A DNA stretch of 64,000 nt from Halarcobacter sp. (GCA_963676565.1 OY781089.1:2080001-2144000), one strand, 5' to 3'. Numbered from the stretch's first letter, positions 49,211-62,451 are shown. Notes: a model not told the origin generated them from the letters alone. Numbers and translations: made by a program.

Positions 49211-50434
49211 TTAGATTAAGGTATTTACTTGGTTTCTTCCGTTGTTTTTTGATTTATAAAGGGCATTGTCAGCTCTATTTAAAACATCATCAACATTGTC
49301 ACCTTTTTTATATTGGCTAACTCCAAAACTTGCAGTTATATTTTGGAATATTTTAAAGTCATGTTTTTCAATATGGCTTTTAAGTTTTAGTGCCACACTT
49401 TCGCCAACAGTTAAGTTTGAATTAGGGCATATAATTAAAAATTCTTCGCCACCCCACCTTCCTACATAATCAACTTTTCTTGTTTGTTGTTTCAGAATTT
49501 TTGAAATCTCTACAAGGATTTTATCCCCTGTTAAATGACCAAACTGATCATTAATATTTTTAAAATAATCAACATCTAAAATTATCAATGAGAATTCAAT
49601 ATTATATCTTTGGGCATAAGAAAGCTCTTTTTCCAATAGATTATCTAGTTGCCGTCTATTGAAAACATTTGTTAATGTATCTTTGATAGATAGGTTTTCA
49701 ATAATTTTTTTATCTGTAATATCTTGATTTATTGTGGTATAGCATTTGACATTTCCTAATTCATCAAATGTAGGTGAAATAAGAAGTTTTATCCAAAATT
49801 CACTTCCATCTTTTCTAAGGTTTTTAATCTCACCATCCCATCTTTTACCTGAAGTTACAGTTTTCCACATATCTCTATATAAAGTTCGTGGTGTATCAGG
49901 GTGCTTTAGAATACTGTGTTTTTTTCCTATTAACTCATTTTTTTGATAACCAGTTATATTGCAGTAAGCAGTAGAAATACTTGTTATAATTCCCCGTGTA
50001 TCTGTTGTTGAGATAATTACATTTTTATCGATAATATCAACATATTCATTAACACTATTTTTGTTTTTTACTTCTTTTGTTATATTTTCAATAAAACCAT
50101 AAATATATTCAATATTTCCATCATCATCTTTTTTAAGTATTTTTGCTCTAGATGAAAAATATTTTATTTCATCTCTTTTTTTATCTAAAAATGGAAAGAT
50201 TTTAGAATATTCATAATCTTTAGATTTTAAACAATCTTTAAAATCATCAAAGAAATCACAGGAGTTGATAGGGTGTTTATTTTTGTTATTTGCTAAATTG
50301 AAATTTTCTGACATTAGTTTATTGCAATAGAAATACTCAGGGTCATTTTTACAGTCAATCAACCACCAAGCTATATCAGAAAAGTTAAGGATTTGTTGAA
50401 TATTTTCAAGGTATGCATCAAGCAAATTTTTCAT
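49211..50434 (-). CDS. PAS-domain diguanylate cyclase
   Basis: PAS (ILKHPD...WDGEIKNLRKDG); DVDYFKNIND, RKVD I-site and GGEEF. Confidence 0.9.
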   Translation of the reverse strand: MKNLLDAYLENIQQILNFSDIAWWLIDCKNDPEYFYCNKLMSENFNLANNKNKHPINSCDFFDDFKDCLKSKDYEYSKIFPFLDKKRDEIKYFSSRAKILKKDDDGNIEYIYGFIENITKEVKNKNSVNEYVDIIDKNVIISTTDTRGIITSISTAYCNITGYQKNELIGKKHSILKHPDTPRTLYRDMWKTVTSGKRWDGEIKNLRKDGSEFWIKLLISPTFDELGNVKCYTTINQDITDKKIIENLSIKDTLTNVFNRRQLDNLLEKELSYAQRYNIEFSLIILDVDYFKNINDQFGHLTGDKILVEISKILKQQTRKVDYVGRWGGEEFLIICPNSNLTVGESVALKLKSHIEKHDFKIFQNITASFGVSQYKKGDNVDDVLNRADNALYKSKNNGRNQVNTLI

Positions 50435-50510
50435 GAAGAGCAGTATACAATAATTATTATTACTTTTATATAACTTTTAAATAATTTTTTTAAAAATAAA
50501 GAAAAACTTT

Positions 50511-51548
50511 TTAAATAAATTTATTTATTATGATTTTAAAGGTGGTATTTTGTTTATCTGACTTAACTTTTAATTCCCCTTTAAAATGTTTTTCTATGAT
50601 GGTTTTACACATATAAAGTCCTAAACCTGTACCATTCCTCTTTTCTTTTGTTGTAAAATATGGATCAAATATCTTATCAATTATATCTTTTGGAATTCCA
50701 CCAGCATTATCTTTTATAATAATTATTTGGGCATTGTGATTTTCTTTATAACTAATATTAATGCTTGGATTTTTTATCTCATTTTCATTAAAAGCGTCAT
50801 TTGAGTTATTTAGTATATTTAATATAACTTGTAAGAGTTCATTTTTGTAAATATGTAGTTTGTTTAATTTAGTATTTTTAGTATTTGTAATTTTTACATT
50901 TGATAAGGGTTTGTTTAACATTTCTAAAGAGACATCAACTACATAATCTAGAGAAACATACATTTTTTCTTTATCTTTTTTGAAGAAATTTCTAAAATCA
51001 TCAATTGTTTCAGACATATAAATAATATATTTATCCATATCAACTAGTTTATTTTGTAAACTCTCTTTATCTACTTTGTCAATTTCAAGTCTAAATTTTA
51101 AGTTTGAAATTGCAGCTGCAATTGAAGCTAAGGGTTGTTTCCATTGGTGCGCAATCATGGAAATCATTTCACCCATTGCTGCCATTCTAGATTGTTCTAT
51201 TAGTAAACTTTCATTTTGTTTTAATTCAGTTAAGTTAAGTACATATAAAATTTTGTAAGATCTATTTTCATATTCAAAATCTTTAATTTTTATAATAGCT
51301 GGAACAATTTCTGCATTTTTTGAAAATAATGAAACCTCTTCATAAACATCATTATTAAATTCTAAATATTTCTTATTTATATTTGGGATTAAAATACCAG
51401 TAGCTAATTTATTTATTAATTCCTCTTTTGTCTCATACTTTAATATATCGAGCATGGCATTATTTATATTTTTAATAAAACCATCTTCTATTATAATAAT
51501 TCCTTCGATTGTATTATTAAATAAAGTATTTAAATATTTATTATTCAT
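50511..51548 (-). CDS. Cytoplasmic PAS histidine kinase
   Basis: PAS-like N-terminus; IAHQWKQPL, DNAGG and GTGLGL motifs. Confidence 0.9.
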   Translation of the reverse strand: MNNKYLNTLFNNTIEGIIIIEDGFIKNINNAMLDILKYETKEELINKLATGILIPNINKKYLEFNNDVYEEVSLFSKNAEIVPAIIKIKDFEYENRSYKILYVLNLTELKQNESLLIEQSRMAAMGEMISMIAHQWKQPLASIAAAISNLKFRLEIDKVDKESLQNKLVDMDKYIIYMSETIDDFRNFFKKDKEKMYVSLDYVVDVSLEMLNKPLSNVKITNTKNTKLNKLHIYKNELLQVILNILNNSNDAFNENEIKNPSINISYKENHNAQIIIIKDNAGGIPKDIIDKIFDPYFTTKEKRNGTGLGLYMCKTIIEKHFKGELKVKSDKQNTTFKIIINKFI

Positions 51549-51612
51549 TATATTTATACCTTTTATAAATTATTTTTGTAGTATAATTTAATAATTCTTT
51601 TTGGGAGATAAA

Positions 51613-52362
51613 ATGGTCGATTATATAATGCTTGAAAAGTACGCAAAAAATAAAAGTGTTCTTTTAGTTGAAGATGATGATAACATCATAAAAGAGACTA
51701 AAGAGTTACTTGAACTTATTTTTTCAAATGTTATAGTTGCAAAAGATGGTGATGAGGGTATTAAAAAATATCTAAATTACAAAAAAGAGAATGATAAATA
51801 TATCGATTTAGTAATTACAGACATTCAAATGCCAAAAATGGATGGTATTGAACTTACTAAACTAATCTACAAAGAGAATAATGAACAACTCTTAATAGTA
51901 TTATCTGCCCACAGTGAAAGCCATTATTTACTTGAATTAGTTAATATAGGAATCTCACATTTTATAACAAAACCATTAAATTATGATTCTTTTGTACATG
52001 TTTTATATACAAAACTTAAAGAAGTACATGATAATAAAAATGAAGAGCTTAATACCTCAATAGTTGTAATTGATGAAGAATTAAAATGGGATAAAGAGTT
52101 AAAACAAATATATCAAAATGATCAGATTGTTAAACTTACTAAAAAAGAAACTAAACTTTTAGAGTTGCTTTTAAAATATGCAGAGAAGACACTAAGTGTT
52201 GAAGGTATATTAAATTACTTATGGTCAGATGATGATAATAATGCCCCTGATATTGCTAATCTAAAAAATATTATTTCAAGATTAAGAAAGAAAATACCAA
52301 CTATAGATATTGAAAATGTTTATGGTTTTGGCTACAGAGTTAACTTAAAATACACAAAATGA
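51613..52362 (+). CDS. OmpR-family response regulator
   Basis: VEDD, ITDIQMP and TKP; winged helix ending YGFGYR; GGAG SD before the ATG at 51613. Confidence 0.9.
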   Translation: MVDYIMLEKYAKNKSVLLVEDDDNIIKETKELLELIFSNVIVAKDGDEGIKKYLNYKKENDKYIDLVITDIQMPKMDGIELTKLIYKENNEQLLIVLSAHSESHYLLELVNIGISHFITKPLNYDSFVHVLYTKLKEVHDNKNEELNTSIVVIDEELKWDKELKQIYQNDQIVKLTKKETKLLELLLKYAEKTLSVEGILNYLWSDDDNNAPDIANLKNIISRLRKKIPTIDIENVYGFGYRVNLKYTK

Positions 52363-52416
52363 TACCTTTTTAATACACTGTTTGTATATACTTACTGTAT
52401 GTGCAGGAGGTGCATT

Positions 52417-52800
52417 ATGACTCAATTAGAAAGTTTAAAAAAATATACTATACTTTATGTAGAGGATGAAACTTTTATTAGAAGTAATGTAGAGGGTTGC
52501 CTGAAATATTTTTTTAATGTAATAGTAGCAAAAGATGGGCAAGATGGATTAAAAAGATTTGTTAATGATAAGATTGATTTGATTATTACTGATATTAATA
52601 TGCCTAATAAAAATGGATTAGAGATGTTAAATGATATTAAATCAATCAATCCTTCAATTCCATGTATTGTAACATCTGCTTATGATATAAATAGTGTAAG
52701 TAAAGCAAAAAATTTAGGTGTTTGTCATTATATTACAAAACCTTTTGATATAAAAGATTTATTAAATGATTCATTGGAAATTTTGAAAAAGAACGTATAA
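52417..52800 (+). CDS. Single-domain response regulator
   Basis: VEDE, ITDINMP, TSA and TKPF; AGGAGG SD before the ATG at 52417. Confidence 0.88.
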   Translation: MTQLESLKKYTILYVEDETFIRSNVEGCLKYFFNVIVAKDGQDGLKRFVNDKIDLIITDINMPNKNGLEMLNDIKSINPSIPCIVTSAYDINSVSKAKNLGVCHYITKPFDIKDLLNDSLEILKKNV

Positions 52801-52823
52801 AAAGGTTTTAAAGCCTTCTTATA

Positions 52824-53324
52824 CTAAGAATATTCATTTTTATAATCAACATAATGGCCAGCATGTTTTATTAATTTTTCAACATCTTCATCGCTTAATG
52901 TTTTTACAACCTTAGCGGGGCTTCCCATTATTAAACTTTTTGGTGGAAATATTTTTCCTGAGGTAACTAAAGAGTTAGCACCTACAATTGAACCTTCTCC
53001 AATTACAGCATGGTCTAATATTGTTGCACTCATTCCTATTAAACAATTGTTTTCAATGGTACAACCATGAAGCATAACTTTATGTCCAATAGTTACATTG
53101 TCACCTAAGACTGTTTTTGAATCTGTATCCATGTGAATCATTGATAAATCTTGAACATTTGTATTTTTACCAATAATAATCTCATTTACATCACCCCTTA
53201 AAACACATCCAAACCAAATTGATGAGTTTTCTCCAATAGAAACTTTTCCTATTACATCTGCACTAGGTGCGATCCATGCACTAGAATCTATTTTTGGATA
53301 ATGTTCTTTAAATTTTAATACCAT
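52824..53324 (-). CDS. Gamma-carbonic anhydrase family (YrdA-like) protein
   Basis: Hexapeptide repeats; LRGD, NVQD, MIH and TIGHKVMLHGC motifs. Confidence 0.92.
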   Translation of the reverse strand: MVLKFKEHYPKIDSSAWIAPSADVIGKVSIGENSSIWFGCVLRGDVNEIIIGKNTNVQDLSMIHMDTDSKTVLGDNVTIGHKVMLHGCTIENNCLIGMSATILDHAVIGEGSIVGANSLVTSGKIFPPKSLIMGSPAKVVKTLSDEDVEKLIKHAGHYVDYKNEYS

Positions 53325-53396
53325 CTATTCCCCTTATATTTAAAGGAAATATTATATCTTGGAGAGTTTAAAAATGCAAGAAGCAAAATAGTTTAA

Positions 53397-55985
53397 CTAT
53401 TTTGCCTCATATTTAATAATTACTGGTTCTGAGTAGTTTGGAACTTCATCATATGTAAAGATTGCATAATACTTATCAATATCTTTAGCCCCAAAATCAT
53501 CATATGTATAGTTATCAGTCCCTGCATAAAGTTTTTGTCCATCATGGGTAGAATAGGGTTCCCTAAATGCATTTTTAATAACTTTAGTCCCTTTAAATCC
53601 TACATCTTTAGGGTTTTCCCAGCTGATTTTGATTTTACCATTTTCCAAAGATAGTGAGGTATTAGTAACTTTTGGAAGAGGGTATCTTCTTTTTGGAATA
53701 TGTTCAATAATTAATTTTGGAGAAAGTGCTTGGTTTTTAATCTCCCACGTAACACTTTTATTCTTTATACTCTTTTTAGAAGAGGTTGGTTTTAAAACAA
53801 AAGCAACATCAGATTTATTTTTTAGTTTCTCATTTAAAATAATCTCTGCAAAACTATCAAATAAGAAATATTGAGTTTGATTATTCTTTAATTCATTTGC
53901 ACTTACATCATAACCAATATTTTGAATAATTTCTCTATTTGCTATTGAATCATAATCTTGGTCGATATTTTCATCCACAAATTCAAGGTGAAATCGAATA
54001 TCATCTTTTATATAAATATTTGTAGAATTTAGCTCAAAGTAAGCTTTTGTAATCATCGTATCTTCATGAGGAGGCATTGATGATAAATTAAACTCAAAGG
54101 TAGAGTATATTTTCTTACCATTTTCATCGAATCCTGATGAAATACCATCTTGAGTAATACAATCTTTACAAACTGTAAACACTTTTTTTGGATATAGTTC
54201 TGTAATTGTTGGTTTTATTGTATATGTTAATTCTAATCTTGGTCTATATGTTAAACCATAACCAAATTTTCCATACCCAATATCCCATTGCATCATTTGT
54301 CTAGTACGACCAATTATCAACTCTTTTGGACCTTCAACTCTGAATACAACTTTTCCATATTTTTGACCCATTTCTTGAAGAGTTTTACACTCCATTCTTG
54401 AAAAACTCCATGTTCTCCATATACCTTGAGTTAATTGGTGAGATTCTGTAGGTCTTCCAACATATTGAAGAATTTGCATATTATCAACATCTTCATATTT
54501 GGTAATATCACCCATAGTTTCTTGATCTACAATACCAACATTCCATTCACCGTATTTTTCAATAGTTGTTGAAACTCTATTAATTGGGTAAAGGTTTATT
54601 GAGGCATCTTTTATGATTGCATTTTCTGGAACAGAATTTAAACCAACAGTAACAATAGCATAAGAGATACCCTTATTTTCATCAATTCCTACAAATAAAG
54701 AGTTTACACCAAAATGTGAAGCATTGTTGTTTAGGTTTTCAGCAACATAACCTGTTTCTTTTGCTGTTGCATAATAGGTTCTACTAAACTCATCATAATC
54801 ACAATCTGTTCTAAGTCTTATTTGAGGGTAAAATGGTGATTTTTCACCTGTTAATTTATTTACAACCCTAATATTGTAGAAATAATCTTTATTTGAAGTT
54901 AAATTAATATCACTAAATTCTAAAGTTTGTGTTCTTGCAATTAAGTTTGAACTATTACAAAAGTGTTTATCTTTTTGGGCTCTATAAATCTCAAAGAATA
55001 TATTTTCATTTGTTTCATATTCCCATTTTAAATTTACATGATGTGATCCTATTTCTGTAATCTCAAAGCTATTAACCCTTTTTACTGAATTATTTTTTGA
55101 ATAGTTTGGAACTTCGTTTACCGCAGAAAGTAATGCAGGAATATGTTCCCGCAAATTTTCATTCATATCATCCATATAATCACTTATATTTCTAGTTCCA
55201 ACTTCCACAACAGTTGAGATGATTCCTAAAGAATGATAAAACTCTCTACCACTTCCTGAAATCAATTTAATAGGTGGTTTACCTTGATGGATACCATATT
55301 CTCTACCTGAAATTTTTCTAATCTCTTCAGCCATATTTGCACATAAAGTGTTCATATCAGTTGTATCAATTGTATCTTCATGTCTAAAGTCGTGTGCAGG
55401 GAAAAATACATTTCCTTGTGAGTGGTAGTCTAAAGCAATAGTAATATTCTTATGGGCTTCAACAAAATCTCTTAATGCTCTAGTCTCAGGTTCAGAAAAT
55501 GGTTCTGGACCACCATAAACATTAGATGTTGTTTTGGTTGATTTTACATATCCAATTGGAAAATTTCTGTTTAAATCAACACCATAAGAACCATCTATAT
55601 TTGGTCTTCTATTTTTTCTCCAAAAAGAGAAGTGATTATAAGAATAATCAAAGCCATCTGGATTTGCACAAGGGACCATATAAATAGTAGTTCCTTTTAA
55701 ATATGATTGTATAGTTGTATCTGTATCTAATTTTTCTAATATATATTGTGCAAATTCTACTGCTAATTCATGTCCAATCCATTCTCTAGCATGGATAGTA
55801 CCAGTAAAAAATAGTGCTGGTTGTTCATCTGCTTTTTTAATATCCATAGAGATAGTAATTAGATTAATATCTCTTTTTTCCCAAGTTTGACCTATTGATT
55901 CTAACTTGAAATTATTAGGAAATTTTTTTTCTAAATCTTTAAAAATTTCAGTCGATTCATTATATGATCGATAAAGTTGTTTCAA
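53397..55985 (-). CDS. Large M14 zinc carboxypeptidase with C-terminal beta-rich (FN3-like and other) domains
   Basis: GTIHAREW (HxxE), WRKNRR, GVDLNRNF, PFSEPET, DYHSQG and VEVG; no signal peptide. Confidence 0.88.
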   Translation of the reverse strand: MKQLYRSYNESTEIFKDLEKKFPNNFKLESIGQTWEKRDINLITISMDIKKADEQPALFFTGTIHAREWIGHELAVEFAQYILEKLDTDTTIQSYLKGTTIYMVPCANPDGFDYSYNHFSFWRKNRRPNIDGSYGVDLNRNFPIGYVKSTKTTSNVYGGPEPFSEPETRALRDFVEAHKNITIALDYHSQGNVFFPAHDFRHEDTIDTTDMNTLCANMAEEIRKISGREYGIHQGKPPIKLISGSGREFYHSLGIISTVVEVGTRNISDYMDDMNENLREHIPALLSAVNEVPNYSKNNSVKRVNSFEITEIGSHHVNLKWEYETNENIFFEIYRAQKDKHFCNSSNLIARTQTLEFSDINLTSNKDYFYNIRVVNKLTGEKSPFYPQIRLRTDCDYDEFSRTYYATAKETGYVAENLNNNASHFGVNSLFVGIDENKGISYAIVTVGLNSVPENAIIKDASINLYPINRVSTTIEKYGEWNVGIVDQETMGDITKYEDVDNMQILQYVGRPTESHQLTQGIWRTWSFSRMECKTLQEMGQKYGKVVFRVEGPKELIIGRTRQMMQWDIGYGKFGYGLTYRPRLELTYTIKPTITELYPKKVFTVCKDCITQDGISSGFDENGKKIYSTFEFNLSSMPPHEDTMITKAYFELNSTNIYIKDDIRFHLEFVDENIDQDYDSIANREIIQNIGYDVSANELKNNQTQYFLFDSFAEIILNEKLKNKSDVAFVLKPTSSKKSIKNKSVTWEIKNQALSPKLIIEHIPKRRYPLPKVTNTSLSLENGKIKISWENPKDVGFKGTKVIKNAFREPYSTHDGQKLYAGTDNYTYDDFGAKDIDKYYAIFTYDEVPNYSEPVIIKYEAK

Positions 55986-55988
55986 AAA

Positions 55989-57491
55989 TTACTCTCCTAT
56001 TTTAAGTCTAGATTTTAATTGAGCTAATTTATTTTTCCCAATACCTTCAAGCTCTTTTAATTGATCTAAATCTTTTAAACCTTCATTTTTATTTCTGAAT
56101 TCAAAAATATTTTTTGCAAGTTTAGCACCAATACCTTTTATTTTCTTTAATATTGATTCGTCAGCTGTATTTATGTCAACTCTCATATCATCTAAATTCT
56201 CATCCCAAGTTTTTAGAACTTGTTCATCTATAGATTCTAACTCTAATAAATCACTTGAATCAGTAATAACATTGTTTTTTGCATATTCACTAATCTCTAA
56301 AGCTAAATCCTCTTCCATTCCATGTAAAGTCATTAAATCAGTTAATGATGCACAATTTAAATTTAATTTATTAATCTCTAAATTATCCCTAACTGCATTT
56401 TTTGATAACTCTTTTGCAATAGGTAATTTTTCAAAAGCAATTGAAGCTGGCACATCACTTGGTAAACTAGGTTCAGCCATTTCCATTTTAAATTTATCTT
56501 TTGGCTCATTAATAAAATATGTTCCATCACAAGATGGTTTGTATTTACTAAAACCAATATGTCTCATTGTTCTTAATAGTGATGAGTCAATTTTTCCAAG
56601 CTCTTCCCATGAGAATAATGGAACATGAGGCATAGGAAATTTACCATTTGAAAAATCCCACATTAAATATTGACAAATCCAATCTCTAATATAAGGGAAC
56701 GCTGCAAATGCAGTTGCACATTCTAGTATATAGGCTTTATCTGTTTTTGCATCAATTGCAATATCGCAAGCCCAATATTCAGCTTTTGCTGCTTTACTAG
56801 CTTCTACTGCTAATTCTAAAGCATTCATAGGAACATTTTCATATGACATAGAACCACCTTGAGATGTGTTAGTAATCCATTGTCCTTCCCCTGAAAATCT
56901 CCAAAAGGCGCAAACAGGTTTATGTCCAATTAACATAACTCTAATATCTCCAGAAAATTTTAAATCAATAGCATCTTGTGTATAAATGGGGTTATATTTT
57001 TCTTTTTCTAATAAAGCTTTAGCTTCTTTAAAATTATCAACTTTATGAACATAATATCCACCATAATTTGATGGTCCATAACTTCTTTTTATAATTTGTG
57101 GATACTTAGCTTTATTTTTTAGGTATTTAAATCCCTTTTCTTTATTGTAAAAAATCTTTGTATATGGTGCTGATAGATTATACTTTTCACAAAAAAGTGT
57201 AACATTCTCTTTTGATTTATTTGGAAATTGGGTTTCTAAAGATGGAACAAATCTTACATTTGGTAGTTCTTTTGAAATCTCTACAAATGTATCATATGCT
57301 GTTGCAGGGATATTTCCTATAAGTACATCGATTTTTTTTCTTTTAACTTCTTTTATAAATCTATTTTTATCATTTTTCCAATGATATGTAACAGACTCAA
57401 TCTTGTCTGGCCAACCTTTAAAGTTTGATTTGTCAAAGAATCTCAAAACATAATCTAAATACAAAAAACCTAACTTTGGTAATTTTTTCAT
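55989..57491 (-). CDS. ATP-grasp ligase-like protein fused to ComEA-like helix-hairpin-helix repeats
   Basis: IIKRSYG, DIRVMLIG, WITNTSQGG, ACDIA and ILEC; C-terminal DINTA...IKGIG...LEGIG. ATG at 57491 follows an AAGGAAG SD. Confidence 0.82.
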   Translation of the reverse strand: MKKLPKLGFLYLDYVLRFFDKSNFKGWPDKIESVTYHWKNDKNRFIKEVKRKKIDVLIGNIPATAYDTFVEISKELPNVRFVPSLETQFPNKSKENVTLFCEKYNLSAPYTKIFYNKEKGFKYLKNKAKYPQIIKRSYGPSNYGGYYVHKVDNFKEAKALLEKEKYNPIYTQDAIDLKFSGDIRVMLIGHKPVCAFWRFSGEGQWITNTSQGGSMSYENVPMNALELAVEASKAAKAEYWACDIAIDAKTDKAYILECATAFAAFPYIRDWICQYLMWDFSNGKFPMPHVPLFSWEELGKIDSSLLRTMRHIGFSKYKPSCDGTYFINEPKDKFKMEMAEPSLPSDVPASIAFEKLPIAKELSKNAVRDNLEINKLNLNCASLTDLMTLHGMEEDLALEISEYAKNNVITDSSDLLELESIDEQVLKTWDENLDDMRVDINTADESILKKIKGIGAKLAKNIFEFRNKNEGLKDLDQLKELEGIGKNKLAQLKSRLKIGE

Positions 57492-57517
57492 TCCTAACTT
57501 CCTTCTCAATTTATTAA

Positions 57518-58432
57518 TTATTTTTTAGTTTTTCTATCAATTAAATCAACAATTAAGTCAATTTTTTTATCATTATAATCTATACCAATTTTTTCTTGCT
57601 CTGGAGTTAAAAATGCAGGTATCCCATTAACCTCTAAAACAATATACTCTTCTTTTTTTCTATCATAGATAATATCAACTCCAGCGATATCTAGTCCCGT
57701 AACTTTAGCGGCATTTAGTGCCAATTCGATTACACTTTCTGGAATCTCTCTTTTAAAAACACTTCCCCCACTAGTAACATTTGTTCTCCAATCTGTTCCA
57801 CTAGCACGTCTACCATATCCACCAACATAAACACCATCTACAATATCTATTCTAAAGTCACTATTGTCATAATCAATAAATTTCTCTACGTAAAAAAATC
57901 TTAAATCCATTTGATTTAAAAATGGCAATAACATATCAAGGGTTTCTTCATTTTCAATTTTAGTTAATCCAACTCCACCCCAACCATCAGTTGGTTTATA
58001 AACCATTTTATCCCATTTTTTAATTATTTTTTTTAGTTGACCAGTATCATCTCGATGACAAAGTTTATAATCTGCAGTTTGTATTTTGTTTCTTCTTAAA
58101 ACAAATGATGTATGAAATTTATCTTCAGTTAATTCAAAAGATTCAAAAGAGTTAATCATAGGAATAACTTTACTTAAGGCCTTATATAGATACATTTGAT
58201 ATTGAGTTTGTTCCCCTGCATTGTATGAAAAGAATAAATCCAATTTATCTAACTTAATATTTTTGCCATCTCTTTCATATAAAATGTGACCATTTTTTGC
58301 TATAGCATCCCTAAGGTTAATATTAGAAATAACCTCAATTCCTTTTTCATTTAATCGTTCAATAATCTTTTCTTGAATTATATCACCACCACCATTTTGG
58401 TATAACCACATACCAATTGTTCTTGCTCCCAT
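57518..58432 (-). CDS. RimK/LysX-type ATP-grasp amide ligase
   Basis: DKFHT, YKPTDGWGGVG, VEKFI, DFRI, WRTNVTSGG, AGVDII and VLEVNGIP motifs. Confidence 0.88.
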   Translation of the reverse strand: MGARTIGMWLYQNGGGDIIQEKIIERLNEKGIEVISNINLRDAIAKNGHILYERDGKNIKLDKLDLFFSYNAGEQTQYQMYLYKALSKVIPMINSFESFELTEDKFHTSFVLRRNKIQTADYKLCHRDDTGQLKKIIKKWDKMVYKPTDGWGGVGLTKIENEETLDMLLPFLNQMDLRFFYVEKFIDYDNSDFRIDIVDGVYVGGYGRRASGTDWRTNVTSGGSVFKREIPESVIELALNAAKVTGLDIAGVDIIYDRKKEEYIVLEVNGIPAFLTPEQEKIGIDYNDKKIDLIVDLIDRKTKK

Positions 58433-58458
58433 AAGTTCTCCTAATTTATATATTCCTA

Positions 58459-59550
58459 CTATCTTTGTTGATAAAAACTTAAAATTTTTGTCATCATTTC
58501 GATTCGCTGTTCAAATGAACTTTTTAATGCTCTTTCTTTTTTTGTATGGTCACCGTCTCCAAAAGGACCAAAGCCATCAATTGTTGTTACTCCACAACTT
58601 GCAACAATATTGGCATCACTAACACCACCTCTTCTTTCTGTTTGAATTTTTTGATTAGTCAATTCTTCAAAAAATTTAATCAAATCTAACTGACTTTGGT
58701 TTTGCTCCATTACTCCTCTTTGGATTATACCCTCTGCGTGGGAAATGGTTCCTTCAACAAATGATTTATTAGTGATTTCTTCTACACTTTTCATAACTCT
58801 TTCTTGTTCACTAACTTTGTCAAATCGAAATTCCATATGCATCTCACAATGGGGCGATACAGTATTAATTCCAATACCACCTTCCATCTTGCCTACATTT
58901 ACAATAGTTCCTTCATCAAAGTTTATTAATTCATGAAATTTTTGAAGTTTAATAGCTCCTTCAAGATTTGCATTGATACCTTTTTTGTATGAAGTTCCTG
59001 CATGTGCAGCTTTTCCTTCAACTTTTATAATATATCTTCCAACACCTTTTCTTGCTGTAACTACTTCAAGCTCTTTGCCTGCTGCTTCAAATACAAAACA
59101 ATAATCATAATCCTTTGCAATTGATGCTGTAACTTCTTTTGAGTCATCACTTCCTGTCTCTTCGTCTGAAACCAATAAAAAATCAATATTGAAAATTTCT
59201 TTATTTTTCTTAAAAATGTTTCTAAGAGATTGTAAGGCTACAATATTACCACCTTTCATATCACATGCACCAGGACCATATATCCAATCTTCATCTTCAC
59301 TAAAACCTTCAAAATATCCCTTAGGAAAAACAGTATCGTTATGTCCTAATAAAAGTATTTTTTTCCCATCTTTTCTAGCAGATTGATATAGGATATGATC
59401 ACCAATTAATTCTCTTTTGAATATTTTTTTTGAAAAGCCAAGTTCTTCTAGCCATTTACTCATGTAACTACTAACTTCATCGACACCATGTTTGTTATGG
59501 GTGTATGAGTTAATATTAATGATTGTTTTTAAGTCTTTTAAGTAATTCAA
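58459..59550 (-). CDS. M20 metallopeptidase (carboxypeptidase G2-like)
   Basis: GHNDTV, GACDMKGG, SDEETG, FEAA, GKAAHAG, GGVSD and GDHT motifs. Confidence 0.9.
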   Translation of the reverse strand: MNYLKDLKTIININSYTHNKHGVDEVSSYMSKWLEELGFSKKIFKRELIGDHILYQSARKDGKKILLLGHNDTVFPKGYFEGFSEDEDWIYGPGACDMKGGNIVALQSLRNIFKKNKEIFNIDFLLVSDEETGSDDSKEVTASIAKDYDYCFVFEAAGKELEVVTARKGVGRYIIKVEGKAAHAGTSYKKGINANLEGAIKLQKFHELINFDEGTIVNVGKMEGGIGINTVSPHCEMHMEFRFDKVSEQERVMKSVEEITNKSFVEGTISHAEGIIQRGVMEQNQSQLDLIKFFEELTNQKIQTERRGGVSDANIVASCGVTTIDGFGPFGDGDHTKKERALKSSFEQRIEMMTKILSFYQQR

Positions 59551-59673
59551 GTTTACCCTTATTTTTTTAATAGGGCAGTCTCTAAAGTAAGAAAGCCAAG
59601 TAATTATATAACTACTTGACTTATATGTGTAGTTTAAGCTGGTTACTTTGTAACCATTTTGTAAATAAAATAA

Positions 59674-60912
59674 CTATTTGTTCTGTGTTTGACCAGCTAT
59701 GATAAATCTTAACGCATTAAGTCTAATAAACCCTTCTGCATCTTTTTGATTATAAACTTCATCTTCTTCAAAAGTTGAGTGTGCTTCTGAGAATAAAGAT
59801 TTTTCAGATTCTCTACCAACAACTATTACATTACCTTTATAAAGTTTTAATTTAACTCTACCTTCTACATTCTCTTGAGTTTTATCAATTGCAGCTTGTA
59901 GCATCTCTCTTTCAGGTGAGAACCAATAACCTTGATAAATTAGTTTAGCATATCTTGGCATCATCTCATCTTTTAAGTGAGCTTCTTCTCTATCTAAAGT
60001 AATAGATTCAATTGCTCTGTGAGCTTTTAGCATGATAGTTCCACCTGGAGTTTCATAACATCCTCTAGCTTTCATACCAACATATCTATTTTCAACAATA
60101 TCAATTCTTCCAATACCATGTTTATTTCCATATTGGTTTAATGTTTCAAGAATAGTTGCAGGAGACATAGCTTCACCATTAATTGCAATAGGGTCACCAT
60201 TTTTATAATCAATTGTGATGTATTCTGGTTCATCAGGAGCATTTTCTGGAGAATTAGTCCATAACCACATTGCTTCTTCTGGTTCTGCATTTGGATTTTC
60301 TAATAATAAACCTTCATATGAAATATGTAAAAGGTTTGCATCCATTGAATATGGACTTACAACCGGGTTTCCATTTTCATCAATATGTTTTTTATCAATT
60401 TGTATACCATTTTTCTTTGCATAAGCAAGTAGTTTTTCCCTTGAATTTAAATCCCATTCTCTCCAAGGTGCAATAACAGTAATATCTGGATTTAATCCTA
60501 AATATCCTAACTCAAATCTAACTTGGTCATTACCTTTACCTGTTGCTCCATGTGATACAGCATCTGCACCCATTTTATTTGCAATTTCAATTTGTTTTTT
60601 AGCAATTAAAGGTCTTGCAATTGAAGTACCTAGTAAATATTCACCCTCATAAATTGCATTTGCTCTAAACATTGGGAATACATAATCTTTTACAAATTCT
60701 TCTTTAATATCTAAAATAAAAATATTTTCTGGTTTAATTCCACATGCAAGTGCTTTTTCTCTTGCTGGTTCTACCTCTTCCCCTTGACCTAAGTCAGCTG
60801 TAAAAGTGATAACTTCTGCATTATACTCATCTTGTAGCCATTTTAATATTGTAGATGTATCAAGCCCACCACTGTAAGCAAGTACAACTTTTTTAACTTC
60901 TTTTTTGCTCAT
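59674..60912 (-). CDS. argG: Argininosuccinate synthase
   Basis: [21 protein letters not shown] and YETPGG motifs. Confidence 0.97.
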
Positions 60913-61014
60913 AATATATCCTATGAAATGGTTATTTTAAAGAACGCATTTTAACAAAAGAAAGCTATAAAATAGTTTATATAACTTTCTTCCTTTTATT
61001 ATGTTATTTTTTGT

Positions 61015-62451
61015 TTAAGCAGTATCTTTTCCAATAAATTCTTTTTCATTTGCTTCAGAAACAATAAATTTAGCTATTTCATCTGTTTGTTGAGCTATAA
61101 CTTTAGTTTCATTGGCAATTGAAGCGTTTTGTTGTGTTTGTTGGTCAAGATTATTGATGGCATCATTAATTTGAACAATTCCGGATTCTTGTTCTTTTGA
61201 CGCAGATTCGACATTTGAGATAAGTTCAATTGTTTTATTAATATTTTCATTTAGATAGTTATATCCCAAAATCATTTTATCTGAAATCATTTTCCCATTA
61301 TTTGCTTTAGTTGTTGCTTTTTCAACTAAATTTTTAATCTCTTTTGCTGCTTCAGCTGACCTAGAAGCTAAGTTTCTAACTTCTTGTGCAACTACTGCAA
61401 ATCCTTTTCCTGCTTCACCTGCTGTGGCTGCTTCTACAGCTGCATTTAGTGAAAGAATATTTGTTTGGAAGGCTATTTGGTCAATTACAGTAATTGCTTC
61501 ATTTATAGCATTAACTTCGTCATCAATTTCATTCATAGCAGTTGTTGTTTGTTGTGCTAAATCTTTTCCTTCATTTGCAGAGATGGTAACTTGATTTGCA
61601 AAGTCAGTCATTTTTATAACATTTTGTGTATTTGCTGAAATATTTGAGGTAATCTCTTCTAAAGCAGCAGCTGTCTCTTCTAATGATGCAGCAGCTTCAT
61701 TTGAATTTATATTTAAGTTATCAACATTTGATAAAAGAATATTTGAACTTTTTTCTAGTGTAAGTCCATTTTTTTTATTATCTAACAACATTTTATTAAT
61801 AACATCCGCTAAGTTATTTAGTCCAATTGCAGTTTCTCCTAGATTATTATCATCTGCTATTTTATATGTAAAATCAAGGTTTTGATAGGAGATTAAAGCT
61901 TTTGTAATATTGTTTAAATCCTTATTAACTTTAGAAGATACAATTTTAAACAGTTCATTGATTCCATTTTTAAGTTCTTCAATACCTGTGTTTGTTGTAC
62001 TTTCTTCTATTGTTTGGTTCATATTACCTTCTTTTGCAACATCAATAGCATCTTTTACTGAATTAATTACACTTTTTGAGTCTGTAATATCTTGAGCAAA
62101 TTTAACGACTCTTATCACAACACCTTTATTATCCCTTACAGGAGTATAAGAAGCTTGAATCCAAATTGAGCTACCATCTTTTTTAAATCTTTCAAACTCA
62201 TTGATATTAGATTTACCACTAGCTAAATCTTTCCAAAATTGAGAGTATTCAGAAGAATTTACATAAGTTTTATCACAAAATATTCTATGGTGTTTACCTT
62301 CAATCTCATTTAAAGAGTATCCTAACGCATTTAAAAAATTATCATTGGCATGAATGATTGTACCATCAGGCTTAAAAGAAATAATTGCATAGTTTTCTTC
62401 CATTGCAAGTAATCTCCCTGATTCTTCCTGTGTCTTCCCAAAATTAAACAT
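61015..62451 (-). CDS. Soluble PAS-containing chemoreceptor
   Basis: PAS ([19 protein letters not shown]); no TM; MCP signalling hairpin. Confidence 0.92.

Follow-up and report, generated by a model that had tools for sequence, protein, structure and literature searches.

What is the function of a locus in which two ATP-grasp ligases are encoded between two metallopeptidases of different families? The question is raised by four genes of Halarcobacter sp. (GCA_963676565.1), which lie in a stretch of 64,000 nucleotides (OY781089.1:2080001-2144000, counted from its first letter and referred to below as the window). Four minus-strand open reading frames (ORFs) of 363, 304, 506 and 862 aa are present at 53397-59550 and encode an M20 peptidase, a RimK-like ligase, a second ATP-grasp ligase with a C-terminal helix-hairpin-helix (HhH) domain (ATP-grasp::HhH, or HhH ligase) and an M14 carboxypeptidase (Table 1). 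An earlier note on this DNA had described the genes as co-oriented with gaps of 3-26 bp, and had taken them for a reversible peptide-tagging or amino-acid-polymer system. The observation is confirmed: 26 bp separate the M20 and RimK-like genes, 3 bp separate the ATP-grasp::HhH and M14 genes, and the gap between the two ligase genes is 8 bp to a TTG at 57509 (506 aa) or 26 bp to an ATG at 57491 (500 aa), the latter being the start according to orthologue alignment. The interpretation is partly supported, and we too infer a reversible tagging or polymer system. The cassette is a real, widely conserved and uncharacterized bacterial module that most likely adds glutamate-type residues to its target and removes them again.

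Gene order and distribution

The synteny check that the earlier note had proposed was made with 88 loci, 80 of them taken from species-representative genomes by alignment with the HhH ligase and eight fetched from relatives (one contig is present twice, as L028 and L059). The order M20, RimK-like, ATP-grasp::HhH, M14 recurs in 69 of the 88 loci, with differing flanks, and the cassette is thus not a chance arrangement. The remaining 19 consist of ten that are cut by contig ends, four without an HhH-ligase ORF after the ORF filter (one of which, L021, has all four genes by tblastn) and five true exceptions; seven further loci of the same family (L029-L035) also carry all four genes. Matching stretches in species-representative genomes number at least 554 in the HhH-ligase alignment search, and the carriers among the 80 loci fetched are marine or sediment Campylobacterota, one Thiomicrorhabdus (Gammaproteobacteria) and one metagenome-assembled genome (MAG) labelled Desulfuromonadales.

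The flanking genes vary by lineage. In the Arcobacteraceae they are argG and a gamma-carbonic-anhydrase-like gene; in Sulfurimonadaceae-type MAGs they are rimM-trmD-rplS upstream and smpB and miaA downstream; TauE and DUF309 are seen elsewhere, and Sulfurospirillum, Hydrogenimonas, Thiomicrorhabdus heinhorstiae and the MAG labelled Desulfuromonadales have yet other neighbours. A link to translation, considered because of rimM-trmD-rplS and of an efp gene beside a lone HhH ligase in genome G050, was rejected, since each of these associations occurs in a single lineage.

The four genes are also present or absent together in most of 61 related genomes, with all four found in 23 and none in 33. 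Counted singly, the HhH ligase is present in 24 of these genomes (E<1e-150), the M14 enzyme in 25, the RimK-like ligase in 25 and the M20 enzyme in 27; the tally of 33 genomes obtained for the HhH ligase at E<=1e-5 is inflated by the paralogue and by matches to HhH repeats only. The cassette is not indivisible, as five genomes make plain. G032 (1.3 Mb, 99% complete) has only the ATP-grasp::HhH and M14 genes, which are adjacent, and G045 has only the M20 and RimK-like genes; the contig that carries them is 4156 bp long, and the 590 bp after them contain no HhH ligase. The complete genome G017 (L117, G017:C1:1424000-1438000) carries argG, the M20 gene and the gamma-carbonic anhydrase gene with the other three genes cleanly missing, and its lone M20 gene is intact (72% identity, no stops); G002 likewise has M20 alone. 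In G050 the M20, RimK-like and M14 genes are together and the HhH ligase is 0.84 Mb away, between efp and dnaE. The HhH ligase is the sole missing member in G037 (83% complete). These patterns of loss suggest that the cassette is composed of two pairs, with the HhH ligase and the M14 enzyme as the minimal unit.

Several loci depart from the common form in other ways. In a complete-genome MAG (L053:7486-9501) the M20 and RimK-like genes form a single 671-aa ORF, the stop being missing beside a run of six Gs; either these two accessory genes are naturally fused or the homopolymer was misread in sequencing. One Sulfurimonadaceae MAG has both a full cassette (L105) and, on another contig (L079:8992-11944), a lone ATP-grasp::HhH paralogue of 62% identity with a gene for a SelO protein adenylyltransferase directly after it. 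Extra RimK-like genes are found downstream of the M14 gene, together with an HhH-ligase fragment (L050), ahead of the M20 gene (L070) and as a tandem pair (L102), and in another genome a single contig (G020:C17) carries two matches to the whole cassette, at about 54-60 kb and 406-412 kb.

The two ligases

The HhH ligase contains a RimK ATP-grasp domain at residues 110-263 of the 506-aa frame (49.7 bits against a cut-off of 21) and an HHH_3 domain at residues 443-502 (88.8 bits), and its tail matches the structures of ComEA, EEPD1 and Tex. Its structural model, with a predicted local distance difference test (pLDDT) value of 81.9, has the three-domain ATP-grasp fold of the RimK/LysX branch, and the best matches by Foldseek are ArgX in complex with LysW (3vpb, TM 0.75), RimK and LysX, all of which ligate onto the C-terminal tails of proteins; a WITNT motif is common to the HhH ligase and LysX. 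Charge is distributed unevenly along the protein, with a basic core (pI 9.2 and net +12 over the 294 residues computed), an acidic linker (net -15) and an HhH tail of pI 9.7.

Residues 1-335 of this ligase are better conserved between families than any other part of the cassette (68-73% identity, against 48-52% for the M14 enzyme), and they define a small and well-separated family. Only 25 proteins among 1.84 billion representatives match at E<=1e-30, those bearing the core are at least 44% identical, and below them there is a gap until generic RimK-like proteins appear at E ~1e-16. No fused forms of the core (876-2500 aa) were found at E<=1e-10, a negative of slight evidential weight. The HhH tail varies in form, with either two HHH_3 units or one HHH_5, yet is kept in divergent members including P0122 and P0123. 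The E-x-N magnesium motif of ATP-grasp enzymes reads E-C-A (LECAT) in every family member aligned, and the position of the asparagine is occupied by alanine, threonine or serine in the nearest relatives (P0132, P0200, P0225 and P0263). The other nucleotide- and substrate-binding positions (K135, Q172, R184, R198, N208, D243 and E257) are invariant or nearly so.

The RimK-like ligase is the more conventional of the two, with a Pfam RimK domain (PF08443, 82.1 bits against a cut-off of 21), similarity to the RimK structures 5zct and 4iwx (E ~7e-13) and a complete set of canonical motifs, including E-V-N (LEVNG), in which E267 and N269 are invariant in 23 orthologues. Its best NCBIfam model is MptN (138 bits, cut-off 350), and CofF scores 69 bits (cut-off 300). 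For this ligase paired with the HhH ligase's ATP-grasp core, a complex prediction run without controls gave a score of 0.00, which counts neither for nor against an interaction.

The two peptidases

The M20 enzyme contains the Pfam domains Peptidase_M20 and M20_dimer (58.7 bits) and aligns over its full length with carboxypeptidase G2 (CPG2; 1cg2, E 3e-29), with all five metal-ligand motifs in register; it thus has the two-zinc ligand set and the dimerization domain of the CPG2 type. On the glutamate carboxypeptidase model NF004788 it scores 183.6 bits and so falls short of the cut-off, which is 349. The first CPG2 residue to be aligned is residue 22, and the signal-peptide region has no counterpart.

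The Peptidase_M14 domain of the fourth protein (PF00246, residues 14-264, 196.7 bits) carries the motifs HAREW, WRKNRR, DLNRNF, DYHSQG and VVEVG, which are invariant in 74 orthologues except for the two leading valines of the last (86% and 91%; its E, V and G are invariant). These motifs contain what we take to be the zinc ligands His69, Glu72 and His196 and the catalytic residues Arg127, Asn144, Arg145 and Glu270 in carboxypeptidase A numbering, and the zinc-ligand and catalytic residue set of the M14A/B/T enzymes is present. Both peptidases therefore keep their metal ligands, as the earlier note had said. Structural comparison gives a VIA Z of 21-23 to carboxypeptidases B and T against 15.7 to cytosolic carboxypeptidase (CCP) 5 and 16.7 to a Pseudomonas CCP, so that on the predicted model the enzyme is of the M14A (A/B/T) type and not of the CCP type.

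The alignment begins at about residue 5 of the mature carboxypeptidases and the catalytic domain at residue 1, from which we conclude that the M14 enzyme has no signal peptide or prodomain; its open frame extends one codon ahead of the start. Together with the point at which the M20 alignment starts, these features argue, at the level of sequence, that the cassette proteins lack signal peptides, as was originally proposed.

For the segment that forms the M14 specificity pocket the best solved match is human carboxypeptidase O (5mrv, E 3.9e-16). R247 falls in the column of the carboxypeptidase O arginine (SGSSRDW), where CPA4 has isoleucine, and is kept in 73 of the 74 orthologues; position 240, in the column of carboxypeptidase A Tyr248, is K, H or R in 69 of the 74. 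That this arginine determines the specificity of carboxypeptidase O was reportedly established by Garcia-Guerrero and co-workers (Garcia-Guerrero et al. 2018). Carboxypeptidase O is described as preferring acidic C-terminal residues and as lacking a prodomain (PMC6214572), and in a mosquito carboxypeptidase B specificity is attributed to the residue at the bottom of the pocket (PMC8605224).

About 570 further residues follow the catalytic domain, and the full-length model has the architecture M14A, fibronectin type III (FN3), CBM96-fold domain, DNRLRE domain, FN3. Residues 393-589 match a chondroitin-sulfate-binding carbohydrate-binding module (CBM; 8wab_B, Z 17.8, root-mean-square deviation (rmsd) 3.0, 170 of 176 residues aligned) and the alginate-binding founder of the family (7vbo_A, Z 14.6), and have its beta-sandwich fold. 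The Pfam CBM96 family was not detected by sequence at E<=0.01, and atlas matches to CBM96 clusters, which score 0.89-0.90, serve as a lead only. The DNRLRE domain (NF033679, 35.3 bits against a cut-off of 34) is beta-rich with high pLDDT in the model and is probably a second sandwich like the CBM96-fold one, the fold search having barely covered it.

A proposed role for the cassette

We propose that the four enzymes work as one module in the cytoplasm, attaching acidic residues of the glutamate type to a carboxyl group on their substrate and taking them off again, the substrate being most likely the C-terminal tail of a nucleic-acid-bound protein; in this specific form we give the proposal about an even chance of being right. 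The ATP-grasp::HhH ligase would recognize the target and attach the first residue, and the RimK-like ligase would lengthen the chain by adding alpha-linked glutamates. The M14 enzyme, anchored to the substrate by its FN3 and CBM96-like domains, would trim C-terminal acidic residues, and the CPG2-like M20 enzyme would remove the last N-acyl-linked glutamate or recycle short products. The ATP-grasp::HhH and M14 proteins would then constitute the core writer and eraser, with the RimK-like and M20 enzymes as an accessory pair. Acidic residues, and most simply glutamate, are indicated because two ligases of the RimK branch are found together with a basic-pocket carboxypeptidase and a CPG2-like enzyme; the fold relatives of the HhH ligase and its basic surface suggest that the acceptor is an acidic macromolecule, and the HhH tail suggests nucleic acid as the place of action.

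A number of observations weigh against this proposal. The catalytic competence of the HhH ligase is unproven, since alanine replaces the magnesium-binding asparagine. No substrate was found, the flanking gaps contain no plausible co-oriented small gene, and no fifth gene is conserved among the loci examined. The added amino acid is deduced only from the peptidases and from the family membership of the ligases, and the active-site loops of the M14 model (residues 111-161, 189-204 and 234-266) have pLDDT values below 50. The C-terminal domains of the M14 enzyme are not basic (the CBM96-fold segment has a net charge of -3), so that their charge gives no hint that they bind a polyanion or the tail of a protein, and a polymer substrate would explain the CBM96-like domains equally well. 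The compared genomes are related to one another, and the counts of joint presence are thus not independent and overstate the independence of the association. Finally, the pairing of the genes has exceptions in the split cassette of G050 and in the solitary M20 genes of G017 and G002. A list of proteins with acidic C-termini in this genome (RecA, a rubredoxin, a TatC-like protein and others, named from their N-termini) could not be narrowed and is given no weight.

A bolder version of the proposal, which we put forward tentatively and consider rather less likely to be right than wrong, is that the cassette represents an independent bacterial 'glutamylation code', in which a nucleic-acid-tethered HhH ligase would write glutamate tails on a protein associated with the nucleoid or the ribosome and an acid-specific multidomain M14 enzyme would erase them, with a RimK-like elongase and a CPG2-like remover of the last residue completing the set. 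Such a division of labour among four enzymes would resemble the one seen in tubulin tyrosine ligase-like (TTLL) initiators and elongators with CCP1 and CCP5, although of independent origin.

The strongest competitor, which we regard as unlikely while taking it seriously, is a free cytoplasmic acidic polypeptide such as poly-alpha-glutamate, serving as a storage, osmotic or counter-ion polymer that the ligases would start and extend and the M14 and M20 enzymes would shorten from the C-terminus. The deposited RimK structure 5zct bears the title 'poly-alpha-L-glutamate peptides synthetase', most carriers come, by their record titles, from marine or sediment habitats, the cassette and its immediate neighbourhood contain no gene for a substrate, and the M14 enzyme has a domain with the fold of CBM96 modules, which are described as binding long polycarboxylates such as alginate and chondroitin sulfate (PMC9971899). 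However, a free polymer would leave the conserved, nucleic-acid-binding-type HhH tail without a role, protein tails are the substrates of the enzymes nearest in fold to the HhH ligase, the CBM96-like domains lack a basic character, and nothing shows that such a polymer exists.

Two further explanations are both improbable, to about the same degree. The first is that a small molecule or cofactor, folate- or pterin-like, is glutamylated and deglutamylated, in the manner of the caps added by MptN and CofF and of the removal of glutamate from folate by CPG2. MptN provides the best model of the RimK-like ligase and CofF a further match, CPG2 is the closest solved relative of the M20 enzyme, and the intact lone M20 genes of G017 and G002 imply that this enzyme can work without the others. 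The MptN and CofF scores are nonetheless far below the cut-offs, the true RimK of this genome scores higher on MptN (160.7 bits), so that the match is generic, and no riboswitch was found in the region; both the HhH tail and the size of the M14 enzyme (862 aa, several domains) are easier to reconcile with a macromolecular substrate. The second is that the ATP-grasp::HhH protein is an ATP-binding adaptor that brings the target or the M14 enzyme to nucleic acid, leaving the RimK-like protein as the sole writer. The family-wide alanine in E-x-N, and its counterparts in the nearest relatives, would be accounted for in this way, but not the near-invariance of the remaining nucleotide- and substrate-binding positions; moreover, G032 has the HhH protein and the M14 enzyme with no match to the cassette RimK-like ligase (its other PF08443 matches are weak, at 22.2 and 18.7 bits), and a writer would be missing there.

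We think it very improbable that amino acids are joined in amide linkage to the carboxyl groups of an acidic polysaccharide, or of a precursor of one, and then removed. Such a route is favoured by the ability of carboxypeptidases of both families to cleave N-acyl amino acids, which is established for CPG2, and by the alginate- and chondroitin sulfate-binding modules matched by the M14 CBM96 fold. On the other hand, no glycosyltransferase or polysaccharide gene was found beside the cassette by Pfam in the window flanks and seven further loci, the four proteins appear to lack signal peptides, and the ligase folds match those of protein-tail ligases. There is still less in favour of an amino-group carrier protein route of the ArgX/LysX and LysK type, tied to arginine synthesis, in which the RimK-like enzyme would act first and the M20 enzyme last. 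A RimK-family ligase and an M20 hydrolase are indeed the enzyme pair of that route, argG is directly upstream in the Arcobacteraceae loci, and there are matches to LysX_arch (91.8 bits) and [LysW]-lysine hydrolase (42 bits); but both scores are far below the cut-offs (275.6 and 363), LysZ, LysY and LysJ are missing from the cassette, argG is not adjacent in other families, and the absence of the carrier protein LysW from the genome largely refutes the idea. A graspetide or other ribosomal peptide natural-product cluster, which two ATP-grasp enzymes beside peptidases might bring to mind, is refuted as far as sequence can show, because the two flanking gaps contain no precursor gene (as the earlier note had argued), MvdC gives 19.9 bits (cut-off 425) and MvdD 15.7 bits (cut-off 475), and the folds match RimK, LysX and ArgX.

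Features and surroundings of the locus

The M14 stop codon lies within a terminator-like hairpin that is likely to mark the end of the transcription unit, terminator-like sites having been found ten times against 2.3 expected. The hairpin in the argG/M20 gap, with the promoter-like sequence that overlaps it, is likely, though on weaker grounds, to be the boundary and start of the unit, promoter-like matches being no commoner in real than in shuffled sequence. No co-oriented small ORF resembling a gene for a precursor peptide is present in the two flanking gaps, where the small ORFs are one of 28 aa on the other strand and one of 23 aa that runs into the next gene, and an Rfam scan of 52500-61200 returned no riboswitch and a single chance microRNA match (E 0.7). 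Metatranscriptome contigs of X1 and X2 (92-99% alike) cover parts of all four genes and of argG; such contigs cannot show transcription, strand or level, and DNA may be present in libraries of this kind. Two RNA runs of host type (X12 and X24) contain no reads from here and thus do not bear on expression.

Table 1. Features of the cassette and its boundaries, in window coordinates
Feature	Position	Strand	Evidence
M20 metallopeptidase, CPG2-like, 363 aa	58459..59550	-	Pfam, NCBIfam, 1cg2 alignment
RimK-like ATP-grasp ligase, 304 aa, canonical E-V-N magnesium motif	57518..58432	-	Pfam RimK
ATP-grasp::HhH ligase, 500 aa (ATG start)	55989..57491	-	Pfam, orthologue alignment
ATP-grasp core of HhH ligase, residues 1-335	56487..57491	-	Invariant columns, motif alignment
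ComEA-type helix-hairpin-helix domain, C-terminus of HhH ligase	56004..56183	-	HHH_3 2.4e-25
M14 metallocarboxypeptidase, 862 aa	53397..55985	-	Peptidase_M14; model pLDDT 81.6
M14A-type catalytic domain, residues 1-295	55101..55985	-	5mrv/CPA4 alignment; VIA Z 21-23
First fibronectin type III domain of M14, residues 299-396	54798..55091	-	VIA Z ~12-13, rmsd 1.7-2.7
CBM96-fold beta-sandwich of M14, residues 393-589	54219..54809	-	VIA Z 17.8 to 8wab_B
DNRLRE-type domain of M14, residues 596-760	53706..54200	-	NCBIfam NF033679
Second fibronectin type III domain of M14, residues 768-861	53403..53684	-	VIA Z ~11.5-11.9
Terminator-like hairpin, 13 pairs and T run, on M14 stop codon	53380..53408	-	
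Hairpin with T-rich tail in 123-bp argG/M20 gap	59593..59631	-	Promoter-like TACACA-17-TATAAT overlaps

The cassette is surrounded by signalling genes, with a PAS-GGDEF cyclase, a PAS histidine kinase and OmpR-type and single-domain response regulators downstream (49211-52800) and a PAS-MCP chemoreceptor upstream (61015-62451); this block is partly conserved within the family and not outside it. In eight loci of one lineage (L081, L085, L088-L091, L094 and L096; for example L090:13480-13809) a 106-110-aa protein overlaps the M14 stop by 1-4 bases. Hydrophobic stretches at both of its ends suggest two membrane helices, and in the two loci scanned (L090 and L085) it has no Pfam family. Four sequencing runs labelled organism C, from one study and of unrecorded library type, contain 0.82 of the words sampled from 53300-60950. 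Organism C appears to be a eukaryote, to judge from its oligo-dT/polyA RNA libraries, and the bacterium or a near relative may live with it.

Comparison with known systems

In E. coli, ribosomal protein S6 is the substrate of RimK and has a C-terminal glutamate tail. The RimK and RimABK systems of E. coli and Pseudomonas (for RimABK, PMC11957791) are like the cassette in combining a RimK-family ligase with a protease that trims its product, in being cytoplasmic and in having similar ligase folds. They differ in that the RimABK eraser is a retropepsin, whereas the erasers of the cassette are metallocarboxypeptidases, and in that the cassette has two ligases, one with an HhH tail. No RimB or RimA is found beside the cassette ligases, which are accompanied by the M20 and M14 genes only. 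A true RimK (314 aa, 365.3 bits against a cut-off of 331) is encoded at 2.72 Mb in the same genome, outside the window (L120, G000:C1:2719153-2722636). Its partners there are a RimB-like retropepsin of 147 aa, a deacylase-like protein of the AstE/AspA type (348 aa) and a protein of 347 aa that has no NCBIfam match, and because of this separate operon plain S6 glutamylation is excluded for the cassette. On the corresponding equivalog model (NF007764, cut-off 331) the RimK-like and ATP-grasp::HhH ligases score 53.9 and 19.1 bits, and neither passes. The S6 protein of this genome ends in AAKKAN and not in glutamates.

The route of ArgX/LysX, LysW and LysK offers the best structural matches of the HhH ligase (3vpb, 3vpd and 5k2m), shares the WITNT motif with it and likewise pairs a RimK-family ligase with an M20 hydrolase. 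The intermediate enzymes of that route are missing from the cassette, and the M14 enzyme and the HhH tail have no counterpart there. LysW (TIGR01206) gave no match at E<=0.1 in the genome, which is 99.97% complete (a control matched 5 of 14 named genomes), and on the LysX equivalog (TIGR02144, cut-off 275.6) the cassette ligases score 91.8 and 52.4 bits, below the threshold.

The parallel with TTLL and CCP enzymes of tubulin glutamylation, which the earlier note had drawn, holds for the logic of the system and not for its parts. In both cases ATP-grasp writers, possibly an initiator and an elongator, would be opposed by acid-specific M14 carboxypeptidases, and a writer carries a domain for a polymer lattice. 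The TTL family, however, is missing from the Pfam matches at E<=0.01, and the M14 enzyme is closer to the A/B/T enzymes than to CCP5 or the Pseudomonas CCP: besides its lower Z to the CCPs, its catalytic domain begins at residue 1 and is not preceded by the N-terminal beta-sandwich of subfamily D. The parallel is thus best described as an analogy and not as homology of the system.

Individual components have closer relatives. Human carboxypeptidase O has an arginine in the same column and no prodomain, but is an animal, extracellular or lipid-droplet enzyme of a single domain, whereas the cassette enzyme is bacterial, multidomain and by prediction cytoplasmic. Pseudomonas CPG2 matches the M20 enzyme over its full length, including the dimerization domain and all metal ligands, although the latter lacks the N-terminal signal region and falls below the NF004788 cut-off. 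The CBM96 modules share the fold of M14 residues 393-589, which are followed by a DNRLRE-type domain, and differ in that the cassette domain would be cytoplasmic and is attached to a peptidase; a lysine-rich groove is described for the alginate-binding module (PMC9971899).

The suggestion that the ligases match no characterized pathway is borne out, since they are far below all of the curated cut-offs for RimK, MptN, CofF, LysX, cyanophycin synthetase (TIGR02068, 39.1 bits against 850), glutathione synthase and MvdC/D. PADLOC gave no families for the four proteins at E<=0.001, and full-text searches of the literature gave no description of the four-gene combination; Iyer et al. (2009, on amidoligases) may treat related neighbourhoods. 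The substrate could be sought directly through the two ATPases and the two zinc peptidases, the specificity of which is predictable, and its identity would reveal a cytoplasmic polymer or a protein modification that is new in bacteria. Eukaryotes use reversible glutamylation as a major means of regulation, whereas in bacteria it is to our knowledge known essentially only for ribosomal protein S6. The cassette is none of the characterized pathways with which we have compared it, and would be a second, differently built, bacterial system of ligases and peptidases.

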